The position numbers and the translations under genes were made by a program. Positions 2,901 to 35,210 of a DNA stretch of 35,210 nt are shown piece by piece (the stretch's first letter is position 1; each line of letters begins with the position of its first letter). Source of the stretch: a virus (Duplodnaviria; Heunggongvirae; Uroviricota; Caudoviricetes); IMG/VR virus record IMGVR_UViG_2565956633_000004, positions 1 through 35,210 of that record. One strand, 5' to 3'. The notes below the pieces were generated by a model that was not told the origin of the DNA, did no database searches, and saw only the letters and a list, made by a program, of their open reading frames with translations.

Positions 2901-3979
2901 CAGAACGGCTCCTCCTGTACTCTGGCTTTTTTCTTTTTCCGCGCGCCGGGGGCTTCGGGTTCAGGCAGATAAGCATCAGGTGGGCCGACACGGATTTCCG
3001 TCAGGGTGCCGTTCTGGTCCTGAGTAAACGTGACTTCCGAGACAAGCAGTTCGGTATTGTCGAAACCACAGACCGGATCAAAGACAATCACCCGCTGGTT
3101 GGGCTGCCACAGCGTACCGTTACCCTGTCGCCAGCCCTGCACCACATAGGTGGTTTCATCCGTCCGCGCCGCCCGTTGTCGGGCTTCAAAGTCCGCACGG
3201 GCAATACAGCCTGCCCCCGTAGCCTGCCCTGTCTGCCTGATATACATCGGACGGTAACGGGCAATAAATGCGTCCTCTGTGCGGGCCCGCAGCGCGGTGG
3301 TGGTGGCCTCACCGAAATCATCGTCGTTTCCGGCACGCTGCCCCGCCACCTGGTAAACTGAAAACCGCTCCCGGATACTCTTCTCCGTATCACAGGAAAG
3401 GATGTTTTCCCCAAGTACCAGCGCGGTATGTGCCCGCGTTGAGCCAATACCACCAATCACCAGCCTGCCGTGCGGGTCGTCATAAGCCAGCGCCTGCTGC
3501 TGACCGAGTATTTTGTTGATCACCTCGATCACCGTTTCACCGTGATCAGGCTGGACATCCGGAATAACACCCGACGGCGCATCGCTGTTCACCACCTCAA
3601 TGCCGAAAGGCGCAGCAAGCGCCTGCGCAATCTGCACCAGCGAGCGTCCGTTAAACTGTGTCGGTTCGGCTGCACAGTCAATCAGGTCAGCCGTCAGACT
3701 ACGTCCGGCAATACCGGTGCTGACCGAACGGGCATCGTAACGAACGGGGGTCGCCTCCACCCAGCCGGTGATCACCAGCTCATCACCAATCAGCACTTCC
3801 ACTTTTGAACCATTTTTAATGCGCGGCTGAAGCGTGGTGATACCCTCATCTCCCGGCCACTGGCGGGTGATCTCCACGCTGAAATCCCGCGCCAGCCGTT
3901 CAATACCGGCACCGATGCGCACCGATGTCCAGCCATTCCACTCCCGGCCATTTACCCGTAGCGTGACGTTCTCGTTCAT
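2900..3979 (-). CDS. Baseplate hub protein (Mu gp44 / P-like)
   Basis: 359-aa ORF directly downstream of the DNA circularization protein N homolog; synteny with Mu tail module. Confidence 0.6.
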   Translation of the reverse strand: MNENVTLRVNGREWNGWTSVRIGAGIERLARDFSVEITRQWPGDEGITTLQPRIKNGSKVEVLIGDELVITGWVEATPVRYDARSVSTGIAGRSLTADLIDCAAEPTQFNGRSLVQIAQALAAPFGIEVVNSDAPSGVIPDVQPDHGETVIEVINKILGQQQALAYDDPHGRLVIGGIGSTRAHTALVLGENILSCDTEKSIRERFSVYQVAGQRAGNDDDFGEATTTALRARTEDAFIARYRPMYIRQTGQATGAGCIARADFEARQRAARTDETTYVVQGWRQGNGTLWQPNQRVIVFDPVCGFDNTELLVSEVTFTQDQNGTLTEIRVGPPDAYLPEPEAPGARKKKKARVQEEPF

Positions 3980-5304
3980 TGCACTGGCACCTTCAGAGGG
4001 ATCACCGGCACAAAGCCGGGATGCGTAATGGCATTACGCCGGATAATGTCCGCGTCACGCGCCGCGTTATCAAACCAGGTCGCCGCCAGCACCAGCGCGG
4101 GTAAGACCTCATCCGGCGTGCGCTGAATGATCCGAGCAGACTGTTCAAGGCGCGTGTTGATATCCGCATTCAGATCTGCTTTCACCCGGCGCAGCGCCAG
4201 AAACAGCGCATCACTGGTTGTACGGGACAACTCCTTATCAATTGCCGTATTCAGTGTGTCGCGAATGTCAGTCAGTTCTTCCCACGTTGGCAGGTCAACC
4301 GTGTTTTTCACCGCCGGTGCATTGTTCAGTGCCGGATGCGTGACGGAAGGCCAGCCGGTGCTCTGCGCGGAAGTTGTTGACTGCCCCACTGCGGCATTCT
4401 GCATCACCGCGGAAGTTGTTGGCGCAGGCAATCGGGTGACGGCATACGCCGCTTCGCTGATTGCGGTCGCACGAAGGGTGCTGGCAACCACGTTACGCTG
4501 CTGCGTCGCCGTGGCGGTGGTTTTACTGTCCGTTTTCCAGATGCCGCGCGGTTGCAGATCGCTGCCGAGGCTGACACCGGAAAGCGTTTTGATCATGGTG
4601 ACCAGGTCGCTGGCGTTACCATAAAGGCGTTTCCCGGTACGCCACATTTTCTGCACCTGCTCAACGAAATTTTTGCCTGACGATGGCGGCGGCAGAAGTA
4701 CCGAGATATCCCCCTGCAACAGCCTGGCGGCATCCGATACGGCAGAATCCACCACTTTCATCGCATCAGAAACATACCCCAGCATTATGCTGGCATTACC
4801 GATAACGTCGTTCTGCACGAAATCCGCCACACCATCGATACTGAAACCGCTGAAGCTGTCACTGATGCAGTCATCCAGTGCAGAACAGGATGACATCAGC
4901 GTCTGCGCCGTCGCCGCACCTGATGTGGGGTAAGAGAGTTCTCCCGCTTCGACAAACTTCAGGTCAAAGCGGACAATACGCCCTTCACTTTTCGATGTGC
5001 TGACCCGAACCTCTCCGTCAACACAGACTTTCAGCTCACCGTAAGTCGGGTGGACAAGCGTGCCGGGACCGGGTTTATTCAGCGCGTCAATCAGGCGATC
5101 GCGCTGGTCAAAGCAGTCATCGCCCACCACATAAGCCGTGATGGACGGGCGGAAAGTGACTTTTCCCAGATCTTCGGTATAGGGTTTGTCGCGGTTCGGA
5201 TATTCGTGTGTTTCCACACGGCGACCTGTTCCCGCACTTTCTTCTTCAACCTTAAACGGCACACCGCGAAATGACGCGTCCTGAAGCCTGTCTTTCCACG
5301 TCAT
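3976..5304 (-). CDS. Mu gp43-like DNA circularization protein N (tail protein)
   Basis: Conserved N-terminus MTWKDRLQDASFRGVPFKVEEESAGTGRRVETHEYPNRDKPYTEDLGK. Start re-assigned to the ATG at 5304 (GGAG 5 nt upstream); the ORF-track extension to 5352 would translate through a terminator hairpin. Confidence 0.8.
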   Translation of the reverse strand: MTWKDRLQDASFRGVPFKVEEESAGTGRRVETHEYPNRDKPYTEDLGKVTFRPSITAYVVGDDCFDQRDRLIDALNKPGPGTLVHPTYGELKVCVDGEVRVSTSKSEGRIVRFDLKFVEAGELSYPTSGAATAQTLMSSCSALDDCISDSFSGFSIDGVADFVQNDVIGNASIMLGYVSDAMKVVDSAVSDAARLLQGDISVLLPPPSSGKNFVEQVQKMWRTGKRLYGNASDLVTMIKTLSGVSLGSDLQPRGIWKTDSKTTATATQQRNVVASTLRATAISEAAYAVTRLPAPTTSAVMQNAAVGQSTTSAQSTGWPSVTHPALNNAPAVKNTVDLPTWEELTDIRDTLNTAIDKELSRTTSDALFLALRRVKADLNADINTRLEQSARIIQRTPDEVLPALVLAATWFDNAARDADIIRRNAITHPGFVPVIPLKVPVQ

Positions 5305-5316
5305 ATAAACTCCGGA

Positions 5317-5341
5317 TATAAAAAAGCCCACCGAAGTGGGC
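5317..5341 (-). terminator. Rho-independent terminator closing the PH-domain moron
   Basis: Minus-strand GCCCAC-TTCG-GTGGGC hairpin followed by TTTTTTATAT, immediately after the moron stop codon (5368) and before the N-gene RBS. Confidence 0.7.
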
Positions 5342-5367
5342 ATGAAAGACATAAATTAATGTAAGGT

Positions 5368-5745
5368 TTACCCTGCTATTTTTTGAGCCAGATGAGCCTG
5401 CAATTTATAAATGTTTGCTCCTTTACTGAACTGTTTTTTTATCGGTTCTGCAATACCAGAAATCCATATCTTCATTTCAGCATCAAGATCAAGATGCCCG
5501 GCGGTTTCAATAGAAAAGTTTGTCACAGATTTATAAGGAATCGAACGATACTCTACTTTTTTCCCTGTGACACCCTGCTTATCAATAAAAATTAACCTTC
5601 TGTTAGTCAGAATAATTTGGTCACGAATGAGTTTATAGGCAAGTTCGACATTTTCTCCCTCACCTAAAACAGCCCCTAATTCCTGTTGTGCATCTGATGC
5701 ATTAATTTCACCGGCATTACCTATAATGGCATGTAACAGACCCAT
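5368..5745 (-). CDS. Moron: small PH-domain-like (bacterial PH/GRAM-like) protein
   Basis: AT-rich ORF between tape measure and N genes; start placed at internal ATG 5745 (AAGGGA RBS); core LTNRRLIFIDKQGVTGKKVEYRSIPYKSVTNFSIETAG resembles bacterial PH-domain proteins; own promoter-like TATAAT upstream and own terminator downstream. Confidence 0.5.
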   Translation of the reverse strand: MGLLHAIIGNAGEINASDAQQELGAVLGEGENVELAYKLIRDQIILTNRRLIFIDKQGVTGKKVEYRSIPYKSVTNFSIETAGHLDLDAEMKIWISGIAEPIKKQFSKGANIYKLQAHLAQKIAG

Positions 5746-5797
5746 AGATTTCCCTTCAGTTGATAACAAACTTAAAGACAAATTATATCTGGTTCCG

Positions 5798-7633
5798 TCA
5801 TCTGCCAATATGCGTATAGCCAACATCGTGATTTATATCAAAACCGCTGGATCGCGTTTCCATAACCCGCATACCCGGAGGCGAATTCACAAAAGAGACC
5901 TTGATCTCACCGTCAACTTTTGGCGCAGAAGCTTTGTTAATCATGAAGGGATTCGGGCCTGTAGCATCGGAGGCGTTGTTTGACTGAGCCGGATCTACCG
6001 CCGGATAAGGTGTGTATCCCCGCGCCGGTATTCCCGTCCCATAAGCATCATAAGCACCCGCGCCCCACTGCGCCGAGTTAATGGCATCGACCGTGTCACC
6101 GGAACTGTCGGTAAACCACTCAATAATTGGCTTCAGCTTGTCCCACATATCCTGAAACCACTTAACAACCGGTCCCCAGTTATTGATTACCATCCCCAGC
6201 GGCGACCAGGCAAAAACCTTCTTCAGAAGTTCCCAGCCAGCCTCAAAATAAGGACCAATGGTTTCCCAGAGCTTCTTGAAATAAGGTCCAACAACATCCC
6301 AGTTAGTGATAATTAATCCCGCAGCCAAGGCAATCGCCGTCGCAATCATGCCAATCGGCGTCATCGACATGATCCTGCTGACGATACTGATGGCACTGCC
6401 CACGCCCATCAATCCCAGTTTCAGAATCGCAAGACCGGCAGCAAGCCCGACGACGCCGCGAATAACCCGGGGATTTTCATCCGCAAACTTCGTGAATTTT
6501 TCCCCCAACTCCCCCAGCCATTGCGTGATATTTTTGGCGTCACCAGAAAATGCGCCGCCAATAGCCGCAAGGCCGTTAGTTGCGGTCCCCGTCATTGCCT
6601 CCCACAGGTTGGACAGCGTACCAAGCTGTGCCTGAACACGTTTATTCAGGCTGGCCTGTTTATTCATCTTCTGCTGGATCTGATCGTAACCATCCTTTCC
6701 TTTATCGATTAGTGCATTGACCACCTGAAGGGTTTCGGCATCATCACCAAATATTGCCTTAAGTACGCCTGTTCGCTTAACGTCGGTCAGTTTTCGCAGC
6801 TTTGCCAGTTGCCTGAACATGTTATCAAGACCGCCAAAACTTCCTTTGCCGTCAGTAAAATCGAGCTGTACCCCGAGTTTCTGGCGGGCCATGATTTTAT
6901 TGACGTCCCTGATTTTCTTAACGCTTAATCCGGACTGGATAACTTTTCGCAGGGCATTACCTGCCGACTCCCCGTTCATCCCCATCTGATCCATCATGAC
7001 GCTGATGGGGGCAAGGCTCTGTGCAGCCTGAAGACCGTCCTTGTTCACCATCTTCAGAACAGAACTGGTTTTAGTGAAGAAGGACAACATGTTGGTATCG
7101 TCAACGCCCAGATAAAACGCCTTCTGGATAGTGTCGAACAGCCCCATCATGTCTTCTGACGCCGTTCCGGTAGCATCCTGCATCTTTGCAGCAAACTCAG
7201 CAGCCGCTTCCGGTGTTTTTTTCAGTTGTACCGCAAGATAAGCTGTCGCTTTACCCACACCGCCAAGAATGTTTTCTGCCGGGATCCCCTGACGCACCAG
7301 CATCTGCATCATGTTCTGGAAATCAGCCGTTGTACCGGGTAGCTGGTTACCCAGGCCAATAGCCAGTTTATTGATGTCCTGAAAGCTCTTTCCAACCTCG
7401 CCATTCGCATCCATCATGGCGACTTTCAGCCCGGTGGCGGCGTTTTCCTGATCGGCATAAGATTTCAGGGAAAGCGTCAGACCCGCTGCCAGTCCGCCAC
7501 CAAGCGCCAGCCCACCCTTTGACGCTTCTTCCGCCTGGCGTTTAAATCCCCGGATTTTCTTTTGCATTTTCGACAGCGCGGGAGAAAGCCTGTCGACACC
7601 GGTGATCAACGCCTTAAGCTCAAATTCAGCCAT
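5798..7633 (-). CDS. Tail tape measure protein
   Basis: 611-aa ORF, Ala/Gly/Leu-rich with predicted helical and C-terminal hydrophobic segments, directly after the frameshifted tail chaperone pair. Confidence 0.8.
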   Translation of the reverse strand: MAEFELKALITGVDRLSPALSKMQKKIRGFKRQAEEASKGGLALGGGLAAGLTLSLKSYADQENAATGLKVAMMDANGEVGKSFQDINKLAIGLGNQLPGTTADFQNMMQMLVRQGIPAENILGGVGKATAYLAVQLKKTPEAAAEFAAKMQDATGTASEDMMGLFDTIQKAFYLGVDDTNMLSFFTKTSSVLKMVNKDGLQAAQSLAPISVMMDQMGMNGESAGNALRKVIQSGLSVKKIRDVNKIMARQKLGVQLDFTDGKGSFGGLDNMFRQLAKLRKLTDVKRTGVLKAIFGDDAETLQVVNALIDKGKDGYDQIQQKMNKQASLNKRVQAQLGTLSNLWEAMTGTATNGLAAIGGAFSGDAKNITQWLGELGEKFTKFADENPRVIRGVVGLAAGLAILKLGLMGVGSAISIVSRIMSMTPIGMIATAIALAAGLIITNWDVVGPYFKKLWETIGPYFEAGWELLKKVFAWSPLGMVINNWGPVVKWFQDMWDKLKPIIEWFTDSSGDTVDAINSAQWGAGAYDAYGTGIPARGYTPYPAVDPAQSNNASDATGPNPFMINKASAPKVDGEIKVSFVNSPPGMRVMETRSSGFDINHDVGYTHIGR

Positions 7634-26495: not shown

Positions 26496-27043
26496 GCGTT
26501 AGTTTCTCCACAGTCACGACACGCCACGGCGCCCGGAGCTGCACACTCGCGGGCGTCACTACTTTCTGAAACGCAAAAGATTTTGTAGACCAGTGCTGCA
26601 TGCTCCTGCAGCTTCGAAATTGAGAGGTACAGCTCATCGTTAATTGCTGTCTTCTCATGCGGTTCCACTACACCGTCTTCAATTGCTGAACGAATCTGTT
26701 TTGAATAACTGCCGATCTGTTCAATGACCTCCAGCAGGCGTTGGTTGATATCGGCGTTGTCCACATCCTCGATGTCAGGAAGAGACACAAATACGCCATT
26801 TGCAGACTGCGCCACAGCATCAGCAATGAAGTGAGTGCCACCAGCACGCTGTAAAACCATTGCCCATCCCAGCGGGAAAATCTGATCGCCATCTGCACGA
26901 AGGCGGTTGAATAAAGCGTTTTCTGTTACATCGAGCCAATCAGCCGCTTCAGCGTAACCACCCGGCAACGCCGCGATAGTTTTTCTGACAGCTTTCACGT
27001 ACCACTCAGGCTGTTTTTCTATTTTCCAGTGATGCTTACCCAC
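26492..27043 (-). CDS. Putative CII-like / YdaT-family early regulator
   Basis: 183-aa ORF immediately after cro-like gene in the early-right operon; assignment by position and rough recollection only. Confidence 0.35.
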
Positions 27044-27296
27044 GGTTCACCTCCTGTTCCTGTGGTTTAAACCCATTCTGGTTTTGGCTAGATTGAAAAC
27101 GTGCCGGATAAAGAATCTGCATTTCGCTGATTTCACCCTTAAAAAAATTGGCTAAACGTTCTGCAAGCTCGATAGATGGAATCTGCTCCAGCCTCTCAAT
27201 ACGACTCAACGTCGCTGGATTGACTTGAACACCCGCAGCAACATGCTGCAAAGTGAAACCATGCGCCTTACGCACATTTCGTAATGGTGATTGCAT
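27036..27296 (-). CDS. Cro-like HTH repressor
   Basis: 86 aa, HTH (GFTLQHVAAGVQVNPATLSRIE); GGAGG RBS; divergent from cI across an operator-rich region. Confidence 0.65.
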   Translation of the reverse strand: MQSPLRNVRKAHGFTLQHVAAGVQVNPATLSRIERLEQIPSIELAERLANFFKGEISEMQILYPARFQSSQNQNGFKPQEQEVNRG

Positions 27297-27393
27297 ATAT
27301 CCTCCAAATATTGCGCGTTATGCATGTTATTTCACGCAAGTATTTTGCGCAAGTTGATTTGCTTATCACGCAATAAAGAAATGTAATAAACGC
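27297..27393. promoter_or_regulatory. Immunity-region operator/promoter block (divergent cI and cro promoters)
   Basis: Repeated CGCAA/TTGCG half-sites (ttgcgcg, cacgcaagtattttgcgcaag, cacgcaa) across the 97-bp intergenic region; cI ATG preceded by TAATAA close enough for a leaderless transcript. Confidence 0.6.
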
Positions 27394-28086
27394 ATGAACA
27401 TAGGAAAACGAGTCAGACAACTTCGCCAAGCGAAGAACATGAAAATCGCCGATCTCGCTGAAGCAATAGGAGTAGATGCGGCGAACATCTCGCGCTTAGA
27501 AACGGGTAAGCAGAAACAATTTACCGAACAAACACTGAGTAATATTGCCAAGAGCTTAGGTGTTGATATTGCTGATCTCTTTACCTCTGCCCTCAAAAGT
27601 AATACTGTATATAAAAACAGTAATGATGAGGATGTTGCGCAGGTGAAGGATGTGTTCCGTATTGAAATGTTGGATATCAGTGCCAGTGCGGGAAATGGCC
27701 TTATCCAGGGCGGTGATGTCATTGATGTGATTCATGCCATCGAATACAGAACTGATAATGCTGTATCAATGTTCGGCGGACGACCAGCCAATCACATCAA
27801 AGTTATCAACGTTCGTGGGGACAGTATGTGTCCAACCATTGAGCCAGGAGATCTCATCTTCGTTGATGTCAGCATCAATCAGTTTGATGGTGATGGTATA
27901 TATGTCTTTGGTTTTGATGACAAAATATACGTTAAAAGACTTCAAATGATTCCTGACAAACTGCTGGTGATTTCTGATAACCAGATTTACCGTGAATGGG
28001 GAATTACTAGCGAAAACGAACACCGATTCATGGTCTTTGGAAAGGTCTTAATCAGTCAGTCGCAAACCCTTAAGAGACATAATTAA
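27394..28086 (+). CDS. CI-type prophage repressor (HTH plus S24 LexA-like autopeptidase domain)
   Basis: 230 aa; N-terminal HTH (MKIADLAEAIGVDAANISRLETGK), C-terminal VRGDSMCPTIEPGDLIFVD...KIYVKRL S24 motifs. Confidence 0.9.
   Translation: MNIGKRVRQLRQAKNMKIADLAEAIGVDAANISRLETGKQKQFTEQTLSNIAKSLGVDIADLFTSALKSNTVYKNSNDEDVAQVKDVFRIEMLDISASAGNGLIQGGDVIDVIHAIEYRTDNAVSMFGGRPANHIKVINVRGDSMCPTIEPGDLIFVDVSINQFDGDGIYVFGFDDKIYVKRLQMIPDKLLVISDNQIYREWGITSENEHRFMVFGKVLISQSQTLKRHN
27603..27622. promoter_or_regulatory. Near-consensus LexA (SOS) box inside the cI coding sequence
   Basis: TACTGTATATAAAAACAGTA, a CTGT-N8-ACAG palindrome with TA flanks; differs from the E. coli consensus TACTGTATATATATACAGTA only in the central AT tract. 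Confidence 0.4.
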
Positions 28087-28103
28087 CTTCAATATCCCAT
28101 CCA

Positions 28104-28128
28104 TCGGCCACCGAAAGGTGGCTTTTTA
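28104..28128 (+). terminator. Rho-independent terminator after cI
   Basis: GCCACC-GAAA-GGTGGC hairpin followed by TTTTTAT, 20 nt after the cI stop. Confidence 0.7.
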
Positions 28129-28140
28129 TCACCCATAATT

Positions 28141-28200
28141 TTGCACATCTCGCAAAATATTACTTGCGTATATCGCATTTTAATTTTATCTTTTGTTCCA
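28141..28200 (+). promoter_or_regulatory. Candidate early-left promoter/operator (pL/oL analog)
   Basis: TTGCAC ... CGCAAAATATTACTTGCGTATATCGCAT: the same CGCAA/TTGCG half-sites as in the cI-cro intergenic region. Confidence 0.45.
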
Positions 28201-28370
28201 GACCAACTACAGGATTACAACAAAATCTAGTTGCAACACGGTGCATGGTGCATGTGTCGTAAGCGGTCAGTAAATGTCAAAAACGAACAGTCAGGACGAC
28301 CACGAAGTAGCCGCCGGTGGCGTATGAATGACCGGATGATTCGTTAAATACTATGTGTAAGAGAGCGCAA

Positions 28371-28574
28371 ATGAACCGTTATTTCACATGCTCGTTTTGT
28401 GGCGCAAACGAGCTGCAGGCAAAAAAAATCATCGCCAAAGGCGGAAAAGATGAAGTTGCTATCTGCTCTGAGTGCGTAGTCTTGTGTGTAGGGGCATTAA
28501 TCAATATCAGCACAACTATTCAGTTCACACCAAATGAGAATGCGCCTTTAGATGCGCGGAAATCTGGAGGTTAA
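28371..28574 (+). CDS. Small ClpX N-terminal zinc-binding-domain-like protein (first early-left gene)
   Basis: MNRYFTCSFCGANELQAKKIIAKGGKDEVAICSECVVLC: CSFCG...K-I-A-G...ICxECVxLC parallels the ClpX C4 zinc-binding domain; no AAA+ module. Confidence 0.55.
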   Translation: MNRYFTCSFCGANELQAKKIIAKGGKDEVAICSECVVLCVGALINISTTIQFTPNENAPLDARKSGG

Positions 28575-28582
28575 AGAACAAA

Positions 28583-28858
28583 ATGAAAGTCCAGATTTTA
28601 AACAATAGTGGTGAAGTCGTTTGGTCATACGACATAGCCGCTCCTGTAGATCAGAGCGGCGATAGCTGGACCAATGGGAAACATCAGATTATGGCTGGAG
28701 TTGTATTCTCTTTACGCCGTGCTTTGGAACAGGCTGAAGTATTTCCATCAGACCCTGAATGGAAATGGCCTTTTTCTATTTGTCCAAATTCGGAGAGCAC
28801 ATTTCAGAAAATTGGTCAGAAAGTCGCACTCGAAGAGCATCAGCCAACTGTTTCCTGA
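28583..28858 (+). CDS. Hypothetical Trp-rich small protein
   Basis: 91-aa ORF 8 nt after the ClpX-ZBD-like stop; GGAGG upstream; 3' end overlaps a convergent ORF. Confidence 0.35.
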   Translation: MKVQILNNSGEVVWSYDIAAPVDQSGDSWTNGKHQIMAGVVFSLRRALEQAEVFPSDPEWKWPFSICPNSESTFQKIGQKVALEEHQPTVS

Positions 28859-29021
28859 TTTTTTCAGGTAACTCGTCGGCATCGCAGAAACAACAACGCT
28901 CGATCATGTTGAAAGCCGATTCGTAGAACTGTTTCTGCTGAGTGTCGCTGAGACAGGAAAAGAGCGACGTTACGATGATTTTATTAATTGCATTATCAAG
29001 TTCTTTTTCATCAAAAGTCAT
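28776..29021 (-). CDS. Hypothetical small protein, convergent to early-left operon
   Basis: 81-aa ORF with AAGGA RBS 9 nt upstream; AT-rich. Confidence 0.35.
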   Translation of the reverse strand: MTFDEKELDNAINKIIVTSLFSCLSDTQQKQFYESAFNMIERCCFCDADELPEKIRKQLADALRVRLSDQFSEMCSPNLDK

Positions 29022-29039
29022 TTGATTTTCCTTTTATGT

Positions 29040-29458
29040 ATACGGGCTTAAAAGGATACCACCGAGCCTGAAGTGGTGAAAAGACAGGCACATAACAGCT
29101 AAGTATTTTCAACCAGAGAGAATCCTTAGCGTTGTGGTGAATGCGGCTCAGCGCACGCGGGTTAAGGTTGAGGCTGACAGTCGACCTTCTGTGGATACCC
29201 ACCCGCCTGGTGTGCAACCTTCGCCAGGCACCGGGAGGCACCCGGCACCACAACTTTATGCTGTGTGTAGTCTTGGCGGTACCTGCTTGTACCCTTGCTT
29301 CCGGCTGGTACCGTCCTTTTTACAAAACAGAGAAGAGCATCACCGGACGACGGGCTCATAACCCAATCCATCCGGGCGGCAGTCACCGCAGGTGTTCTTC
29401 TCTGTTTTGTGGAGAAACTAACCGACCTTGCAGGGTCGATATGATGAGGAGCAGCAAA
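29040..29458. other. GC-rich, highly structured non-coding region (candidate ncRNA or regulatory leader)
   Basis: No credible ORF (overlapping frames give Arg/Cys-rich junk); nested dyads including a ~19-bp stem (29322-29344 pairing with 29391-29410) enclosing a 46-nt loop, CCGGG-AGGCA-CCCGG, two GGTACC-containing repeats. Confidence 0.4.
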
Positions 29459-29821
29459 ATGGCTAGCGAACGCAGTACTGATGTGCAGGCATTTATCGGG
29501 GAGCTGGACGGCGGCGTATTTGAAACCAAAATCGGCGCAGTTCTCAGTGAAGTCGCTTCCGGTGTGATGAACACGAAAACCAAAGGTAAGGTCTCGCTCA
29601 ACCTGGAAATCGAACCGTTTGATGAGAACCGAGTGAAAATCAAACACAAACTCTCATATGTTCGCCCGACTAACCGCGGGAAAATTTCCGAAGAAGACAC
29701 CACCGAAACGCCGATGTATGTCAATCGCGGTGGTCGCCTGACTATTCTGCAGGAAGACCAGGGACAGTTGCTGACTCTTGCCGGTGAACCTGACGGAAAA
29801 CTCCGCGCAGCAGGTCATTAA
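29459..29821 (+). CDS. YfdP-like protein (120 aa)
   Basis: Start re-assigned to ATG 29459 (GAGGAG 7 nt upstream); same length and position as CPS-53 yfdP. Confidence 0.55.
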   Translation: MASERSTDVQAFIGELDGGVFETKIGAVLSEVASGVMNTKTKGKVSLNLEIEPFDENRVKIKHKLSYVRPTNRGKISEEDTTETPMYVNRGGRLTILQEDQGQLLTLAGEPDGKLRAAGH

Positions 29822-29886
29822 TATCGTTCTTAATTAACTGATTATTTATCTCATCACTGAATATCTTTATATAGTGAGGACTTATT

Positions 29887-30711
29887 ATGTCTCAGAACTT
29901 AGACGCAACCGCAATTAATCAAATCCATGCCCTTATTTCTGCTCAGGGTGTTAATGAAATTATCAGTAAGATTGGTGCCGATGCTGTGGCATTGCCTGAG
30001 AATTTCCGCATTCATGATCTGGAAAAATTTAATTTAAATCGCTTCCGTTTCCGTGGTGCGCTTTCCACTGCCAGCATCGATGACTTTACCCGTTATTCTA
30101 AAGATCTTGCAGATGAAGGCACCCGCTGCTTTATCGATGCTGATAATATGCGTGCCGTCAGTGTGCTTAACCTGGGTACTATTGATGAACCAGGTCACGC
30201 AGATAACACCGCCACTCTCAAACTGAAAAAGACAGCACCGTTCTCTGCTCTGTTGTCTGTTAATGGCGAGCGTAACTCCCAGAAATCACTGGCAGAATGG
30301 ATTGAAGACTGGGCCGACTACCTTGTGGGCTTTGATGCTAATGGTGACACCATTCAGGCAACAAAAGCGGCTGCGGCGGTCCGTAAAATCACGATTGAAG
30401 CAAACCAGACCGCTGATTTTGAAGATAATGACTTCAGCGGCAAACGCTCCCTGATGGAGTCTGTCGAAGCGAAGACCAAAGACATTATGCCAGTGGCATT
30501 TGAATTTAAATGCATTCCGTTTGAAGGTCTGAAAGAACGTCCGTTTAAATTACGCCTCAGCATTATCACTGGCGATCGTCCGGTACTGGTTCTGCGCATT
30601 ATTCAGCTGGAGGCGGTGCAGGAAGAAATGGCTAACGAATTTCGTGATCTGCTTGTTGAGAAATTCAAGGACAGCAAAGTAGAAACCTTTATTGGTACTT
30701 TCACCGCCTGA
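29887..30711 (+). CDS. yfdQ: YfdQ-like protein (DUF2303-type, 274 aa)
   Basis: 274-aa ORF, same length and position as E. coli CPS-53 yfdQ. Confidence 0.6.
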
Positions 30712-30838
30712 TTTCATTACTGCAAATGCCCCTGCGGGGGCATTTATGGAAACGTAATTTACTCAATAATCGCCGGATGGTGAGGGATTCTTTTTACCAG
30801 AATTCAGCGCGGTGCAGCGCATATACGTGGAGAACAAA

Positions 30839-31375
30839 ATGTCATTTATTAAAACTTTTTCCGGGAAGCATTTTTATTATGACAGGATAAATAAAGATGA
30901 CATCGTTATTAACGATATCGCGGTTTCCCTTTCAAATATCTGTCGCTTTGCAGGACATCTTTCACACTTCTACAGCGTCGCCCAACATGCGGTGCTTTGC
31001 AGCCAGCTGGTACCGCACGAATTTGCTTTTGAAGCGTTAATGCATGATGCAACAGAAGCGTATTGCCAGGACATTCCCGCACCACTGAAACGCCTTCTTC
31101 CTGACTATAAACGGATGGAAGAAAAAATAGACGCCGTAATCCGTGAGAAATACGGGTTACCCCCGGTTATGAGTACGCCCGTGAAATATGCCGATCTCAT
31201 CATGCTGGCAACCGAACGCCGCGATCTCGGGCTTGATGATGGCTCTTTCTGGCCTGTACTGGAAGGTATCCCGGCAACAGAGATGTTCAAAGTTATTCCA
31301 CTGTCGCCAGGCCATGCCTATGGGATGTTTATGGAACGTTTTAACGAGTTATCGGAGTTACGCAAATGCGCATGA
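30839..31375 (+). CDS. yfdR: HD-domain phosphohydrolase (YfdR-like, 178 aa)
   Basis: Start at ATG 30839 (GGAG RBS): MSFIKTFSGKHFYYD...; HD signature ...FAGHLSHFYSVAQHAVLCSQL...ALMHDATEAY. Confidence 0.7.
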   Translation: MSFIKTFSGKHFYYDRINKDDIVINDIAVSLSNICRFAGHLSHFYSVAQHAVLCSQLVPHEFAFEALMHDATEAYCQDIPAPLKRLLPDYKRMEEKIDAVIREKYGLPPVMSTPVKYADLIMLATERRDLGLDDGSFWPVLEGIPATEMFKVIPLSPGHAYGMFMERFNELSELRKCA

Positions 31376-31728
31376 ATGTTTTCGAAATGGAAGGGTTTCT
31401 TCGCGGGAAATGTGTACCGCGAGATCTGAAAGTGAACGAAACAAATGCTGAGTACCTGGTGCGTAAATTTGATGCGCTTGAAGCTAAATGTGCAGCACTG
31501 GAAAACAAAGTAATACCAGTGTCAGCTGAACTGCCGCCAGCGAACGAAAGTATTCTGTTATTTGATGCTAATGGAGAAGGCTGGCTGATTGGCTGGCGTT
31601 CTCTCTGGTATACATGGGGGCAAAAAGAAACCGGAGAATGGCAGTGGACATTTCAGGTCGGGGACCTTGAAAACGTCAATATCACTCACTGGGCTGTAAT
31701 GCCAAAAGCACCGGAGGCTGGAGCATAA
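31366..31728 (+). CDS. YfdS-like protein (DUF551-type, 120 aa)
   Basis: 120-aa ORF overlapping the yfdR-like stop; length and position match yfdS. Confidence 0.5.
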   Translation: MRMNVFEMEGFLRGKCVPRDLKVNETNAEYLVRKFDALEAKCAALENKVIPVSAELPPANESILLFDANGEGWLIGWRSLWYTWGQKETGEWQWTFQVGDLENVNITHWAVMPKAPEAGA

Positions 31729-32009
31729 TGACCACATTTACCGATAAAGAACTGATTAAAGAAATCAAAGAACGAATCAGCAGCATGGACGTGCGAGACA
31801 ATGTTGAGCGCCGTGCTTATGAAATTGCTCTGGCATCGCTGGAAGAGGATCCGGTGGCATGGCTGCATTCAGACAATGGCTTAGGTATTCCGGCAATAAC
31901 CAGAAGTAAAAACGTTGCTGACAGTTGGTTATCAAAGGGCTGGTATGTTCAGCCGCTATATATAGCTCAGCCGATGCCAATACAAGAACCGCCGCAGGAG
32001 GTAAAGTGA
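31728..32009 (+). CDS. YfdT-like small protein
   Basis: 93-aa ORF coupled to neighbours. Confidence 0.45.
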   Translation: MTTFTDKELIKEIKERISSMDVRDNVERRAYEIALASLEEDPVAWLHSDNGLGIPAITRSKNVADSWLSKGWYVQPLYIAQPMPIQEPPQEVK

Positions 32010-32581
32010 TGAACAACTTAATGATCGACCTTGAGACGATGGGGAAAAATAAGGATGCGCCGATCGTTTCTATTGGCGCAGTGTTCTTCACCCCAGAAAC
32101 CGGAGACATCGGACAAGAATTCTATGCGGCTGTCAGCTTGGACAGTGCTATGGAGCAAGGGGCCACACCTGACGGCGACACCATCCTGTGGTGGTTGAAA
32201 CAAAGCCCTGAAGCACGAGCTGCAATCTGTATTGATGATACTTTGTCGATCAGCGATGCACTCTCTGAACTGAGCCATTTCATTAATCGGCACGCAGACA
32301 ATACGAAATATTTAAAAGTCTGGGGTAACGGAGCCAACTTCGACAACGTAATTTTACGCGGAGCTTATGAGCGAGCAGGACAAATCTGCCCATGGGCGTA
32401 CTGGAATGATCACGATGCGCGCACGATCGTTACGCTTGGGCGTTCCATCGGATTCGACCCAAAAATGGACATGCCTTTCGATGGCGAACGGCACAACGCC
32501 CTGGCTGATGCTCGTCATCAGGCAAAATATGTTTCCGCTATCTGGCAGAAATTAATTCCTGCCACCAGCACAGAATTATGA
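32009..32581 (+). CDS. DEDD-type 3'-5' exonuclease (DnaQ-like fold)
   Basis: Start at ATG 32009 (AGGAGG RBS): MNNLMIDLETMGKNKDAPIVSIGAVFF (Exo I motif D-x-E), later HNALADARHQA (Exo III motif). Confidence 0.65.
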   Translation: MNNLMIDLETMGKNKDAPIVSIGAVFFTPETGDIGQEFYAAVSLDSAMEQGATPDGDTILWWLKQSPEARAAICIDDTLSISDALSELSHFINRHADNTKYLKVWGNGANFDNVILRGAYERAGQICPWAYWNDHDARTIVTLGRSIGFDPKMDMPFDGERHNALADARHQAKYVSAIWQKLIPATSTEL

Positions 32582-32617
32582 TTTTCCCGGGTGCAGCCGG
32601 TTTTGATGGAGAAAATT

Positions 32618-32899
32618 ATGAACACCTTGTTTTTACTGATGGCTGAATTCAATACCCCTAACATTGAACTCTCAGCAGTTAGCCAAAAGTACTTTGGCAT
32701 GAGTCCAGCCACGGCAGAAGCAAAAGCAAACGCTTGTAAGTTGCCCGTTCCAACATATCGCATCGGCACATCACAAAAAGCAAAACGTTGCATCAATATT
32801 CAGGATCTTGCGGAATACATAGACAAAAGACGAGAAGAAGGACGTATCGAGTGGGAACAGGTCAGAACAAGCAAACAGAAGGGCAAAGAACATCACTAA
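32618..32899 (+). CDS. PrtN-family small DNA-binding protein (possible excisionase/recombination directionality factor)
   Basis: Start at ATG 32618 (GGAG 6 nt upstream): MNTLFLLMAEFNTPNIELSAVSQKYFGMSP...; last gene before the prophage-end terminator, where CPS-53 carries torI. Confidence 0.5.
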   Translation: MNTLFLLMAEFNTPNIELSAVSQKYFGMSPATAEAKANACKLPVPTYRIGTSQKAKRCINIQDLAEYIDKRREEGRIEWEQVRTSKQKGKEHH

Positions 32900-32900
32900 A

Positions 32901-32930
32901 GAAAAAACCCGCCTAAAGGCGGGTTTTCAA
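32901..32930. terminator. Bidirectional rho-independent terminator at prophage right end
   Basis: AAAAAACCCGCC-TAAA-GGCGGGTTTT with A-tract before and T-tract after. Confidence 0.8.
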
Positions 32931-32946
32931 AAAGCACCAGCTATGA

Positions 32947-33120
32947 TCATGCTGCTTTGCGACGACGAAGCTTACCCTGCTGCTCTTTACCAGAGACAGT
33001 AGCGTGAGTGAACGCATTAGGAGCAGCCTTCATCAGAACTTCAACAGCAGCACCCATACCTGCGAATGCTTTCATTGTGTCGAACTTAACCTGTGGCTTG
33101 GTTGCTTTTTGATCTTTCAT
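32947..33120 (-). CDS. Small Lys-rich protein (57 aa), function unknown
   Basis: ORF read by hand (MKDQKATKPQVKFDTMKAFAGMGAAVEVLMKAAPNAFTHATVSGKEQQGKLRRRKAA); GGAG 7 nt upstream; below the ORF-track size cutoff. Confidence 0.4.
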   Translation of the reverse strand: MKDQKATKPQVKFDTMKAFAGMGAAVEVLMKAAPNAFTHATVSGKEQQGKLRRRKAA

Positions 33121-33188
33121 AGAAAACTCCCGAGACAGTAAAGGCGTCTCTAACCCTCTCTTTAAAGCTAGCTTGTTTCGCTAACTTA

Positions 33189-33209
33189 TGCCAATCGATC
33201 ATGTCGATT
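33189..33209. promoter_or_regulatory. Perfect palindrome CCAATCGA-tcatg-TCGATTGG upstream of the 57-aa ORF
   Basis: 8-bp arms, 5-bp spacer; a second dyad CTACAA-t-TTGTAG lies at 33267-33279. Confidence 0.35.
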
Positions 33210-33316
33210 GGTGACATCGTTTCTTAGTAGTTTAAGCACAAAACGACTGCCATAGATGTACCTTTAAGGTAATCTGGACGGGTATCCTACAATTTGTAGA
33301 CCCTTCTCGTCTATAC

Positions 33317-33853
33317 CTACTGAGCAAATTTAAGAAAGATATCCTGCAGCTCATCAATGACTGCAGACATCACATAACCGCACTGTTCCATGCGGAAACC
33401 AAAAGACTCGTAATACTGCACCAGTTCTGGTACTGGCTCTACAATGTGGACAACTTTACATTCAACAGCTTTACAAAATATAAAAGCACTCATAAGAGTG
33501 AGTAAAACCATGCGCCCTTTCAATGGGTGAGATTCATCTTCTCTAGAAAACCTTTCGATCATATGGATACGAAAGATGTTTTCTTCAACCCCATAAACAC
33601 AAATTGCTGCTCCTGATGGTATTCCCTGAACCCGACCTTGCTGAACAAGTTTTATGCAGAACTCATACTTTTCTCTGGAGTTGCCATAGGTGCTTAACGC
33701 ATAGTCCCATTCAAGCTCACCATAGCCACCACACAGAATCTTGTAATCATCATCACTGAGCGGACCAACAGCAAGAGGTAAGCCGACATGATCAATAATC
33801 AACTGGATATTGTTACGTACAGATTGACCTATCTCGTCTAGGGTAAGCATCAT
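33317..33853 (-). CDS. Hypothetical protein, AT-rich (possible acyltransferase-like fold)
   Basis: 178-aa ORF; segment HPLKGRMVLLTLMSAFIFCKAVECKVVHIVEPVPELVQYYESFGF loosely resembles a GNAT motif-A region; weak assignment. Confidence 0.35.
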   Translation of the reverse strand: MMLTLDEIGQSVRNNIQLIIDHVGLPLAVGPLSDDDYKILCGGYGELEWDYALSTYGNSREKYEFCIKLVQQGRVQGIPSGAAICVYGVEENIFRIHMIERFSREDESHPLKGRMVLLTLMSAFIFCKAVECKVVHIVEPVPELVQYYESFGFRMEQCGYVMSAVIDELQDIFLKFAQ

Positions 33854-34392
33854 AGACTCTCAAGCGGAACACTAAAAATCTCATTATATCTCATTCTGAT
33901 GCCCGGCATGGATTACACCTTGAAATGAAAACACCGGGTTCCCAATAGGCTCCCACAAAGTGTATAACTACTTGTTTTTCAAAAACGGTACATCCTATCG
34001 AGCATTGGTGCAACGCTAAACCGACCACTCCAGTGAACGTCAGTTTTTTCAGGCATTGCGCTGGTTTGGTTGATTTTTTGCATTTCAGAATTACCGTGCA
34101 TTTTCAAATGTAGAGATTATTTTATCGATATATCATGGGGTTATGTTATTCAGCATCACTGTTCAGGAGGCTCAATAACGGGGTACTATACCATAACAAC
34201 AGGAAGCGCCTGTCTCATTGCAAAAGAAAATTGAGATCCTCTCAAGGCATGAAGCTCTCACGAAGTGATGGAAATAATCTTATTAGCCGTTAGCTTTGTT
34301 AAGGCCAATGATAAACAATCCAGGTTCGACGATAAATAAAAATCACACATTAAACTCCGGTGATATCTCTCCCTGCTAATAGCACTGATAGA

Positions 34393-34422
34393 GAAAAAAA
34401 GAACCCAATAAGCATTGGGTTC
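34393..34422 (-). terminator. Rho-independent terminator after the partial AT-rich gene
   Basis: Minus-strand GAACCCAAT-GCTT-ATTGGGTTC followed by TTTTTTT. Confidence 0.65.
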
Positions 34423-34463
34423 TTTTATGTAATGCCTTCCATACCATCGAAGAACTTCACATA

Positions 34464-35210
34464 TTATTTCTCCGATTTAACCCCGAATAAATCATAAATT
34501 AATTTAGAAGTGTCTGTATATATTTTAATCTTTTCCTTTGAGTTTGGGTCAAACGACTTAGCAAAGTCAATTAATTTCGGTGCAGCATCTCGCATTTTGC
34601 TTAAAATATCAGGGGCGAGCTTTCCTTCATTCACCAGATGTGACATCTTATCCAGATAGCCATCAAAATTCATTTCTCCCCCATCTGCCAGACGCTTCAT
34701 CTCTCCCAGGTACTTCTTCATATCACGTTGAGATAACTCTTCAAACTGAGCTGTCAGATAGTTCTCATTATCATCATTAATATTCACTTTTTCTGCTCCT
34801 GCTAAATCTGTGTAGGCACTAGAGTATGAAAGTGAAATCAACAGCGAAGCGAATAATTTTAAGCTGTTGTCATCATATTCCTGACATGCATTAACAAACG
34901 TTAAAAAACCAGAACCTATTGCTTGCAAATGTATATTCGCTAAAGGTTCATTATCTTTAGATTCCTCATAAAAAAGCTGAACCGTGGAGGGAAGGCCATT
35001 CTTGGTTTCTACATCAAAAGTATATCGTTCTATGGGCGTTGCATCTTTATTATCCTCAGGATTACATATACTATTAATCGCAAAATGAAAAATAGCCCGA
35101 TCAACAACTGATGCAATAAATTCACGATCGTTTAATTCCTCATCAGTGCAATCTCCAATATACTTATTAACCCACTCTTTGAGATTAGTTATTTGCTCAA
35201 TTAAAAACAC
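34464..35210 (-). CDS. Hypothetical protein, AT-rich, 5' end outside window
   Basis: 248 codons open to the window edge, no start codon inside the window; acidic, Lys/Asp/Glu-rich; no domain recognised. Confidence 0.45.
   Translation of the reverse strand: MFLIEQITNLKEWVNKYIGDCTDEELNDREFIASVVDRAIFHFAINSICNPEDNKDATPIERYTFDVETKNGLPSTVQLFYEESKDNEPLANIHLQAIGSGFLTFVNACQEYDDNSLKLFASLLISLSYSSAYTDLAGAEKVNINDDNENYLTAQFEELSQRDMKKYLGEMKRLADGGEMNFDGYLDKMSHLVNEGKLAPDILSKMRDAAPKLIDFAKSFDPNSKEKIKIYTDTSKLIYDLFGVKSEK

Follow-up and report, generated by a model that had tools for sequence, protein, structure and literature searches.

Elements that integrate into the 5′ end of dusA have been described by Farrugia et al. 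2015 (PMC4482086); they come with a mimic of the 5′ end of dusA, and the original 5′ end is displaced to the far junction. The DNA analyzed here, a stretch of 35,210 nucleotides (hereafter the window), shows the same integration geometry: its prophage is likewise inserted in the dusA 5′ end, and what had been the 5′ end of host dusA is now found at the far junction. The counterpart of the mimic is found in the attP of the free phage mEp460, beside the integrase, and has ~70% (71%) amino acid identity to DusA residues 1-35. Unlike the described elements, the window holds the integrase-distal junction only, the integrase lying beyond its left end; in mEp460, a DAI-type tyrosine integrase adjoins attP.

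In a three-way alignment with K-12 and the mEp460 attP, the window agrees with prophage-free K-12 rightward of positions 33998-34005, through the 5′ end of dusA and on to yjbM, and tracks mEp460 leftward of them. The 8 bp themselves, the crossover core ATGCTCGA (minus strand), are the only stretch shared by all three sequences. The alignment places the actual right-hand border of the prophage at this att junction, which lies within the dusA 5′ end of the host, and not at the terminator at 32901-32930 where an earlier note on this DNA had put it. Since phage-like sequence, namely that of mEp460, starts leftward of the core, the 178-aa open reading frame (ORF) that had been taken to lie outside the prophage is inside it, together with a 57-aa ORF that had been overlooked. 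Moreover, the 178-aa gene is not flanking chromosome, because mEp460 itself carries this cargo between xis and attP.

The remnant of the dusA 5′ end (33979-34101, minus strand) comprises 35 dusA codons (34101-33997), which match K-12 DusA residues 1-35 at 100%; it then reads into phage DNA and reaches a stop 6 codons on. In an identical strain, PGAP labels this remnant as a partial tRNA-dihydrouridine synthase. A separate observation concerns strain 81, which matches the window at 100% identity throughout our 2.3-kb query, yet whose prophage is much shorter, with the remainder not collinear. Upstream of host dusA, a promoter scan found a sigma-70-like site, TTAACA-17-GATTAT (34274-34302, minus strand), which is a consensus match only, and no terminator is predicted between this site and the 178-aa gene. 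In the lysogen, this predicted dusA promoter would point through the dusA remnant into the phage cassette described below.

The region is almost certainly made up of three unrelated things: a phage cassette, then the att junction in dusA, then host yjbM. Base composition shifts toward AT past position 32931, as the earlier note had observed, the GC content being 0.54 in the structural genes, 0.456 in the early region, 0.425 at 32931-33997, 0.393 at 33998-34463 and 0.356 in yjbM. It should be noted that in dusA-integrating phages the border falls inside dusA, and that neither the first strong terminator nor low GC marks it. The 178-aa and 248-aa ORFs that the earlier note had placed side by side do exist (33317-33853 and 34464-35210, respectively, both on the minus strand); they are unrelated and do not belong to a single locus.

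The 248-aa ORF had been said to match no nameable family. That does not hold, as it matches PF10897 over profile positions 2-235 of 235 (E 4e-144; 478.8 bits, the gathering score being 27) and is the orthologue of K-12 yjbM, with 88% identity and the same zur-dusA position as in prophage-free K-12. Its 248 codons are the C-terminal part of a frameshift-split DUF2713 gene: an A7 instead of an A8 tract just past the end of the window splits the gene into yjbL and yjbM, as in K-12. The previous description of the ORF as running off the window was misleading: the gene is split at the window's end, which is why the final codon of the window is the first start of the ORF. A terminator-like hairpin on the minus strand after yjbM (34397-34426; 13-bp stem and T-run) is conserved in K-12. 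Compared with K-12 YjbL/YjbM, the neighbours on the zur side and the dusA side and the frameshift split are the same, with no notable difference. Intact DUF2713 proteins, 318-340 aa long, occur only in E. coli. For the 330-aa intact protein, AF2 gave a model too poor to use (pLDDT 40), from an alignment holding only E. coli sequences that are ≥84% identical. A phylostratigraphy paper (PMC12218254) ranks the yjbL-yjbM operon as young (phylostratum 9) and lists its function as unknown. A syntenic orthologue in a prophage-free strain, which would speak against acquired cargo according to the earlier note, is thus present for yjbM in K-12, but the gene is an E. coli-restricted orphan and not a housekeeping gene, its GC is low everywhere, and it belongs neither to the cassette nor to the prophage.

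The last ~1.07 kb of the prophage, a lambdoid one that integrates in dusA, make up a segment (32931-33997) which, judged from its sequence organization, is a ‘moron’, or autonomous accessory cassette. It is laid out as a -10 box, a 178-aa GNAT-fold gene, a 196-nt spacer, a 57-aa gene and a terminator; its -10 box and terminator are predicted, its GC deviates, it is replaced in sister phages, and it occupies other positions elsewhere. The only families that the two proteins match are PHROGs of unknown function (4350 and 2741, respectively). None of the 178-aa, 57-aa and 248-aa proteins matches a defence HMM in PADLOC-DB v2 at E≤1.

The 178-aa protein (33317-33853; mEp460 gp23, phrog_4350) is acidic, with a pI of 4.8. 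Structure-based comparison bears out the weak acyltransferase-like motif noted before: the protein has the GNAT core fold β1-α1-α2-β2-β3-β4-α3-β5-α4-β6, mixed alpha/beta, the fold is confident, and there are residues invariant across the homologues. At the position of the acetyl-CoA pyrophosphate-binding motif (the β4-α3 junction), the family has an invariant H-P-L-x-G-x-M (residues 109-115; here HPLKGRM), of which the central Gly alone fits the canonical Q/R-x-x-G-x-G/A, and the loop is longer than usual. The candidate catalytic residues would be E100 or H97 on strand β4 and Y148 on helix α4. Neither Pfam nor NCBIfam gave a match at E≤1, ten distant relatives from an exhaustive profile search have no Pfam match at E≤0.01, and a profile search of the PDB returned chance matches only, with no GNAT among them. 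The family is a divergent, acyltransferase-like one without a Pfam model, and the 178-aa protein is probably an active acyl-CoA-dependent N-acyltransferase.

The 57-aa protein (32947-33120, minus strand; mEp460 gp24, phrog_2741, E 8e-36) is lysine-rich and basic (pI 10.5), with the C-terminus ...GKLRRRKAA, and its charge is opposite to that of the GNAT protein. It has no match in Pfam, including RHH and DUF1778, and a PDB profile search gave chance matches only. Directly after its stop codon, a GC-rich hairpin terminator (32903-32928; 11-bp stem, T-run on the minus strand) is predicted to end the minus-strand cassette transcript; it sits between the 57-aa gene and the convergent xis (PrtN-type, 32591-32899, plus strand). 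This hairpin and the one after yjbM agree with the terminators reported earlier. At the other end of the cassette, a consensus -10 box, TATAAT (33883-33888, minus strand), stands ~30 nt upstream of the GNAT start, with no recognisable -35. The box comes from alignment and direct reading, the two-hexamer promoter scan not having listed it; aligned upstream regions of 12 loci show that, in its other contexts, the cassette is accompanied by an equivalent TAnAAT box.

The 196-nt spacer between the two genes (33121-33316, minus strand) is strongly structured: it folds better than its shuffles (MFE z-score -3.9; most spacers of homologous loci score between -2 and -5), and its 3′ half is conserved across Enterobacteriaceae. 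It contains a conserved palindrome, CCAATCGA-N5-TCGATTGG (33191-33211), upstream of the 57-aa gene, for which it is possibly an operator or a leader. Despite the good folding, we do not claim an RNA element here, as the spacer neither matches an Rfam family at gathering score nor has covariation support in RNAalifold. A 193-nt sRNA, sRNA-17, has been reported (PMC7719688) from E. coli K1, in a prophage like mEp460. The spacer was suspected to be this RNA because of the similar length and because ‘hypothetical’ genes had been removed before intergenic regions were defined in that study; the identification was rejected, the sRNA-17 sequence matching window positions 29285-29314 with 3 mismatches.

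All GNAT homologues examined (21 loci and the window) have a homologue of the 57-aa gene downstream, 93-250 nt away, and the pairing holds down to 39-43% GNAT identity. Among 5426 complete E. coli genomes, 358 have the GNAT gene and 358 the whole cassette, O157:H7, O145 and O111 strains being included, and a further 204 have the small gene only. The cassette is very common in the dusA prophages of Salmonella, and the pair is conserved across Enterobacterales and Shewanella. Its contexts include the slot between the dusA att site and xis in E. coli and Salmonella; a position downstream of Q and before methyltransferase/lysis genes in many phages; a position after Q in Franconibacter; the interior of a tail module in Photorhabdus; stand-alone loci in Pseudescherichia chromosomes; and, in Xenorhabdus, a site directly upstream of cas3. 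The earlier idea of low-GC cargo abutting the attachment region survives for the 178-aa gene, which occupies a variable att-proximal slot that holds a Panacea pair in relatives, and falls for yjbM.

As a working explanation, the GNAT-fold enzyme and the 57-aa protein would act as enzyme and antidote, forming an accessory for phage defence, exclusion or prophage maintenance. The enzyme would be bound or regulated by the 57-aa protein, which may be open to proteolysis through its RRRKAA-COOH tail, a putative degron of the kind recognized by ClpX. In the lysogen, transcription of the cassette could start at its own promoter and could also reach it by read-through from the host dusA promoter. The activity of the GNAT protein is tied to the partner in this explanation because the partner accompanies the GNAT gene in every case, while the partner is also found without the GNAT gene. 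The explanation as a whole blends secure anatomy with a tentative enzyme/antidote function, and our confidence in the blend falls a little short of even. That the cassette is a toxin/antidote-like or defence module is, taken by itself, a tentative suggestion, with the odds leaning against it. Its most specific form is rather unlikely, namely that of an undescribed two-component toxin/antidote or anti-phage module in which an acidic GNAT-fold acyltransferase is checked by a labile small protein encoded downstream, as a self-contained moron spreading among temperate phages and Enterobacterales chromosomes, including those of EHEC O157:H7 and many Salmonella.

Alternatively, the GNAT protein could be a non-toxic enzyme whose acetylation of a protein, from the host or the phage, serves lysogenic conversion, host take-over or anti-defence, with the 57-aa protein as its substrate, its specificity subunit or a transcriptional regulator. 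The late-operon position downstream of Q in many phages fits expression during lytic growth, and the Xenorhabdus location beside cas3, the pairing of a lysine-rich, basic small protein with an acidic enzyme, and a palindrome that could serve as an operator for the small gene are all in keeping with such a role. The GNAT anti-CRISPR AcrVA5 would be an analogue for an anti-defence role, and no sequence relation between it and the 178-aa protein was found. Nevertheless, the analysis points to no target, a simple enzyme would not predict the strict one-way dependence of the GNAT gene on the small gene, and a toxin-antitoxin-like pair replaces the cassette in the same slot. We consider a non-toxic modifier unlikely, though deserving of serious attention.

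The two genes might also be independent neighbours, the GNAT protein being a solo small-molecule acyltransferase (for detoxification of antibiotics, polyamines or metabolites) and the 57-aa gene merely hitch-hiking. Many Foldseek matches of the 178-aa protein are indeed small-molecule GNATs such as SpeG, the small gene occurs alone in the 204 E. coli genomes, the two genes lie 93-250 nt apart, and the small gene may have a promoter of its own. However, the GNAT protein has no NCBIfam match, and the pair travels together in at least 6 unrelated contexts and down to ~40% identity, which hitch-hiking should not survive; independence is quite improbable. A still weaker case can be made for decaying remnants without function. 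The DUF2713 gene is frameshifted both here and in K-12, but its intact alleles are common, the cassette ORFs are intact and ≥95% identical in the 358 E. coli genomes, and the pair's conservation across Enterobacterales and Shewanella, its invariant residues and the confident fold make decay very improbable. Finally, the view that both ORFs are horizontally acquired non-phage cargo in a defence or toxin island beside att, suggested by low GC and two proteins of unknown function, is scarcely credible given that free mEp460 carries the 178-aa gene, that the att junction at 33998-34005 and the dusA promoter region separate the two genes, that yjbM sits in the same place in prophage-free K-12, and that 4380 of the 5426 complete E. 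coli genomes match the 2.3-kb query, most of them in the yjbM-dusA part only and just 332 over ≥80% of its length.

The structural similarity of the 178-aa protein to N-terminal acetyltransferases (NatD, Naa20, Ard1, RimI) is as high as that to GNAT toxins. With NatD/Naa40, Naa20, Ard1 and RimI it shares only 10-14% sequence identity and its CoA-loop motif is degenerate; in further contrast to these enzymes, it stands in a phage accessory context with a dedicated small partner. In the toxin modules TacT-TacA, AtaT-AtaR and KacT-KacA, the antitoxin is encoded upstream and is translationally coupled, whereas here the only partner is downstream, at a distance of 93-250 nt. The TacAT, AtaRT and KacAT antitoxins have an RHH or DUF1778 domain, which the 57-aa partner lacks, and no sequence-level relation links the cassette to the GNAT-toxin modules. 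The GNAT toxins stop growth by acetylating aminoacyl-tRNA, an effect that their partners neutralize; they are basic tRNA binders, whereas the enzyme described here is acidic, and the acidic pI of its whole family (4.3-4.8) would speak, if weakly, against tRNA binding.

The closest relatives of the cassette are gp23 and gp24 of mEp460 (YP_007112097 and YP_007112098), which are the same genes in the same order and position between a PrtN-type excisionase gene and attP. The 2.3-kb query aligns with mEp460 over 1205 nt at 96.9% identity, and both cassette proteins are 100% identical to it in tblastn; gp23 and gp24 are annotated as hypothetical only, and our literature search found no functional study of them. 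The Panacea (SocA-like, PF13274) pairs are absent from the window and have no homology to the GNAT-fold protein, and they occupy an identical slot made up of the dusA stub, the cargo, the 57-aa gene and xis. In the sister dusA phages Lys8385Vzw and SKA5, a Panacea-domain antitoxin and its partner fill this slot with the 57-aa gene kept, and three inspected E. coli chromosomes likewise have a Panacea pair there. The retention of the 57-aa gene in these sisters fits an independent role and a leftover ‘orphan antidote’ alike. The strict two-gene architecture, the mobility of the cassette and its interchangeability with the Panacea pair make it a candidate phage-borne toxin/antidote, defence or host-modification module.

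The ORF listing places genes of 57 aa (32947-33120), 178 aa (33317-33853) and 248 aa (34464-35210) at the right end of the window, all on the minus strand; the 57-aa gene is absent from the earlier note. GC content drops in steps along the window, from 0.54 over the structural genes (1-27000) to 0.456 in the early region (27001-32900), 0.425 over the stretch that carries the 178-aa and 57-aa genes (32931-33997; hereafter the cassette), 0.393 between the attachment core and the last ORF (33998-34463), and 0.356 in the last ORF (34464-35210). The terminator scan identifies hairpins at 32903-32928, which closes the cassette unit, and at 34397-34426. Thus, the raw observation of the earlier note, i.e. 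two ORFs and terminators in low-GC DNA, is real. Its placement of both ORFs just outside the prophage right end is revised below.

The window was compared by alignment with two references, the yjbM-dusA region of prophage-free K-12 and the attP region of the free phage mEp460. From yjbM through dusA codon 35, the window follows K-12 apart from a few substitutions and, ahead of dusA, an indel of 1 nt, while to the left of 33998-34005 it tracks mEp460; only ATGCTCGA, at 33998-34005, is common to all three. This switch puts the prophage right end at about 34000 and not at the terminator (32901-32930). mEp460 aligns to window positions 32900-34104 (query positions 1-1205). In the phage, the matched stretch sits between the PrtN-type excisionase gp25 and attP/integrase gp22, and encodes gp24 (57 aa) and gp23 (177 aa); mEp460 also carries a sequence of its own that mimics the 5′ end of dusA (~71% protein identity). 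Elements with dusA-associated integrases replace the dusA 5′ end, and the original one stays behind at the distal junction (PMC4482086); the window has this textbook arrangement. By alignment, the 178-aa ORF is phage DNA lying inside the prophage, and the 178-aa and 57-aa proteins are identical in sequence to gp23 and gp24, which are unstudied. Among the 5426 complete E. coli genomes, 4380 match some portion of 32900-35210, whereas only 332 cover at least 80% of it. Strain 81 (NZ_CP088131.1 4366000-4418988; loci L039 and L001) shows 100% identity to the window across 32900-35210, but its space between actP and the dusA stub apparently fits only ~10 kb of prophage. Related strains thus seem to retain the att-proximal cassette in prophages that differ in length and content.

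The 248-aa ORF matches Pfam DUF2713 across the entire model (E 4e-144) and occupies the zur-dusA interval just like yjbL-yjbM of K-12. Judged by this match and position, it is host yjbM, an already known gene of unknown function, and not cargo of an unnamed family as had been proposed. The single functional statement we found in the literature is a listing of the yjbL-yjbM operon as young in evolution, with an unknown function (PMC12218254). Nearly all named DUF2713 homologues are from E. coli, and all are at least 85% identical. Intact forms of 318-340 aa need an A8 tract and read ...ARKKNVFLIEQ..., whereas in K-12 and the window strain the tract is A7, which breaks the gene in two (yjbL and yjbM). 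The tract lies just past the window end (35211 onward; 8300-8330 in L001 and 3560-3580 in another compared locus, L003), so the ORF seems to start with the final codon of the window. Both allele types, intact and split, occur commonly in E. coli, and the A7/A8 difference could be phase variation or simple decay. Intact lengths step by 10 aa (318/328/338 and 330/340), suggesting that an N-terminal DKLDN-type repeat varies in copy number; the AF2 model of the intact protein is unusable (pLDDT 40). In Salmonella enterica (L024-L031, 1655-2965), a 436-aa TraF_2-domain gene occupies the zur-dusA gap in place of the DUF2713 gene of E. coli; this gap therefore varies by lineage, independently of the prophage.

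The 178-aa protein has no matches in Pfam, NCBIfam or PADLOC, and matches phrog_4350, whose function is unknown. Its homologues (43-99% identity) come from many Enterobacterales and from a single Shewanella. When 1.84 billion representatives were searched exhaustively with a profile, only 94 relatives emerged at E<=1e-3, and the distant ones also have no Pfam domains. AlphaFold2, run on a 31-sequence alignment, gives a model with pLDDT 93.6 and pTM 0.90, for which the Foldseek matches listed from the PDB are all GNAT acetyltransferases (probability 1.0, TM ~0.57, 10-15% identity). In the alignment and model, the invariant residues H97 and E100 on strand β4 and Y148-x3-G-F on helix α4 coincide with GNAT catalytic and CoA-binding positions. 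The CoA loop is atypical (HPLxGxM), and the family is acidic throughout (pI 4.3-4.8). What had been noticed as a weak acyltransferase-like motif is now a confident GNAT fold. On the predicted structure, the protein belongs to the GNAT superfamily, though curated sequence models miss it; enzymatic competence is plausible, and the protein is probably an acyl-CoA-dependent acyltransferase.

With an HMM built from five small ORFs, a 53-58-aa homologue is found directly downstream, on the same strand, for all GNAT homologues fetched (21 loci and the window), including phage Eeyore, where the small ORF is unannotated and the GNAT protein only 42% identical. The small protein, which would be functionally coupled to the GNAT-fold protein, has a basic pI of 10.5. 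It contains a conserved core (FDT...GAAVEVLMKAAP), ends in ...QGK-RRRKAA, and has no relative in Pfam or the PDB. Among complete E. coli genomes, the GNAT gene is found in 358 and the whole cassette likewise in 358, while another 204 have the small gene alone; the dependence is thus one-way, the GNAT gene never being seen without its partner. In 3/3 small-gene-only chromosomes inspected and in two phages, a Panacea-domain protein (PF13274, E 2e-19) with a 128-139-aa partner replaces the GNAT gene. One-way dependence is expected of a harmful enzyme and its antidote, and would also fit a cargo slot that the small gene constantly flanks. Between the window and a Salmonella dusA prophage (L024), nucleotide identity is ~80% over the GNAT gene and spacer and then rises abruptly, where the 57-aa gene begins (boundary 33113-33120), to 98-100% over that gene. 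Throughout the Enterobacteriaceae the small gene is always the more conserved (84-98% vs. 65-81%, nucleotide), and the pattern suggests that the joint is mosaic, that the small gene is under stronger constraint, or that both hold.

The cassette occurs in several contexts: the dusA att-xis slot of E. coli and Salmonella, where in Salmonella it is very frequent (small protein in 1389 index blocks); between Q/DUF968 and the DNA methyltransferase and lysis genes in Citrobacter/Salmonella and Enterobacter prophages and phage Eeyore; within the tail module of Photorhabdus myovirus-like prophages; at a prophage end in Shewanella; and after Q, adjoining chromosomal lepA, in Franconibacter. Stand-alone copies lie in the chromosome after an EamA-family transporter gene in Pseudescherichia spp. 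and Escherichia sp. ESNIH1 (L015-L017, ~5000-7000); the genes downstream vary by species, and the surroundings are free of phage genes. In L015, a pore-forming colicin is encoded 1.6 kb upstream. In Xenorhabdus kozodoii (L023, 5105-9818), the cassette is immediately upstream of cas3 (HD nuclease-helicase), beside a CRISPR-Cas locus with no obvious prophage around. In a dusA prophage of E. coli 13E0725 (L038, 1335-2369), an additional 344-aa gene annotated 'competence protein CoiA' lies between the 57-aa gene and xis, so cargo varies at a second site of this att-proximal region as well.

Alignment of the 200 nt before the GNAT start across contexts reveals a TAnAAT box conserved in all of them, ~30-40 nt ahead of the start codon; the window has a perfect TATAAT at 33883-33888. 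From its sequence features, the cassette qualifies as a phage moron in the classical sense. A host dusA promoter-like site (34274-34302) is co-oriented with it and no terminator is predicted between them, so read-through into the cassette is possible in a lysogen. The spacer between the two genes (33121-33316 in the window; 93-250 nt across loci) folds more stably than shuffled sequence at most loci (z -2 to -5; window ~-4). Its 3′ half is conserved among Enterobacteriaceae with a palindrome, ACCAATCG-N5-7-CGATTGGT, which in the window is perfect (CCAATCGA-N5-TCGATTGG, 33191-33211) and upstream of the 57-aa gene. RNAalifold detects no covariation in the spacer and Rfam gives no match; the spacer may be an operator or promoter of the small gene, an RNA hairpin or an mRNA leader. 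Elsewhere, in the early region, a 30-nt stretch (29285-29314, minus strand) overlapping ORF 29141-29821 matches the 5′ part of sRNA-17 with 3 mismatches; sRNA-17 is reported to be an ArcA-regulated sRNA of an mEp460-like prophage in E. coli K1 RS218 (PMC7719688).

The anatomy, fold, pairing and mobility of the cassette, and the sharing of its slot with a toxin-antitoxin-like pair, are established by these comparisons. Of the earlier note, the location and the second gene fall away; what stands is a two-gene phage cassette that is real, widespread, uncharacterised and inexpensive to test. As to function, we tentatively favour an enzyme-plus-antidote accessory module for defence, exclusion or prophage maintenance, because of the one-way dependence, the structural closeness to GNAT toxins, the replacement of the GNAT gene by the Panacea pair, and the stand-alone chromosomal copies together with the one beside cas3. 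In addition, ClpX recognizes ssrA-like ...AA and MuA-like RRKKAI motifs, and the partner's C-terminus presumably resembles a degron of this type. However, the acidity of the enzyme, the lack of a DNA-binding domain in the partner, and the retention of the small gene beside the self-sufficient Panacea pair speak against this reading. So do gene order and spacing, which are unlike those of known GNAT toxin modules, and a resemblance to non-toxic protein N-acetyltransferases that is just as strong. The main rival, nearly as probable and likewise tentative, is a non-toxic protein-modifying enzyme that would act in lysogenic conversion or anti-defence; the small protein would then serve as its substrate, adaptor or regulator. 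The cassette differs from TacAT, AtaRT and KacAT in antitoxin type, gene order and coupling, and is not a member of that family; it is a phage moron whose GNAT-fold protein has a small partner dedicated to it.
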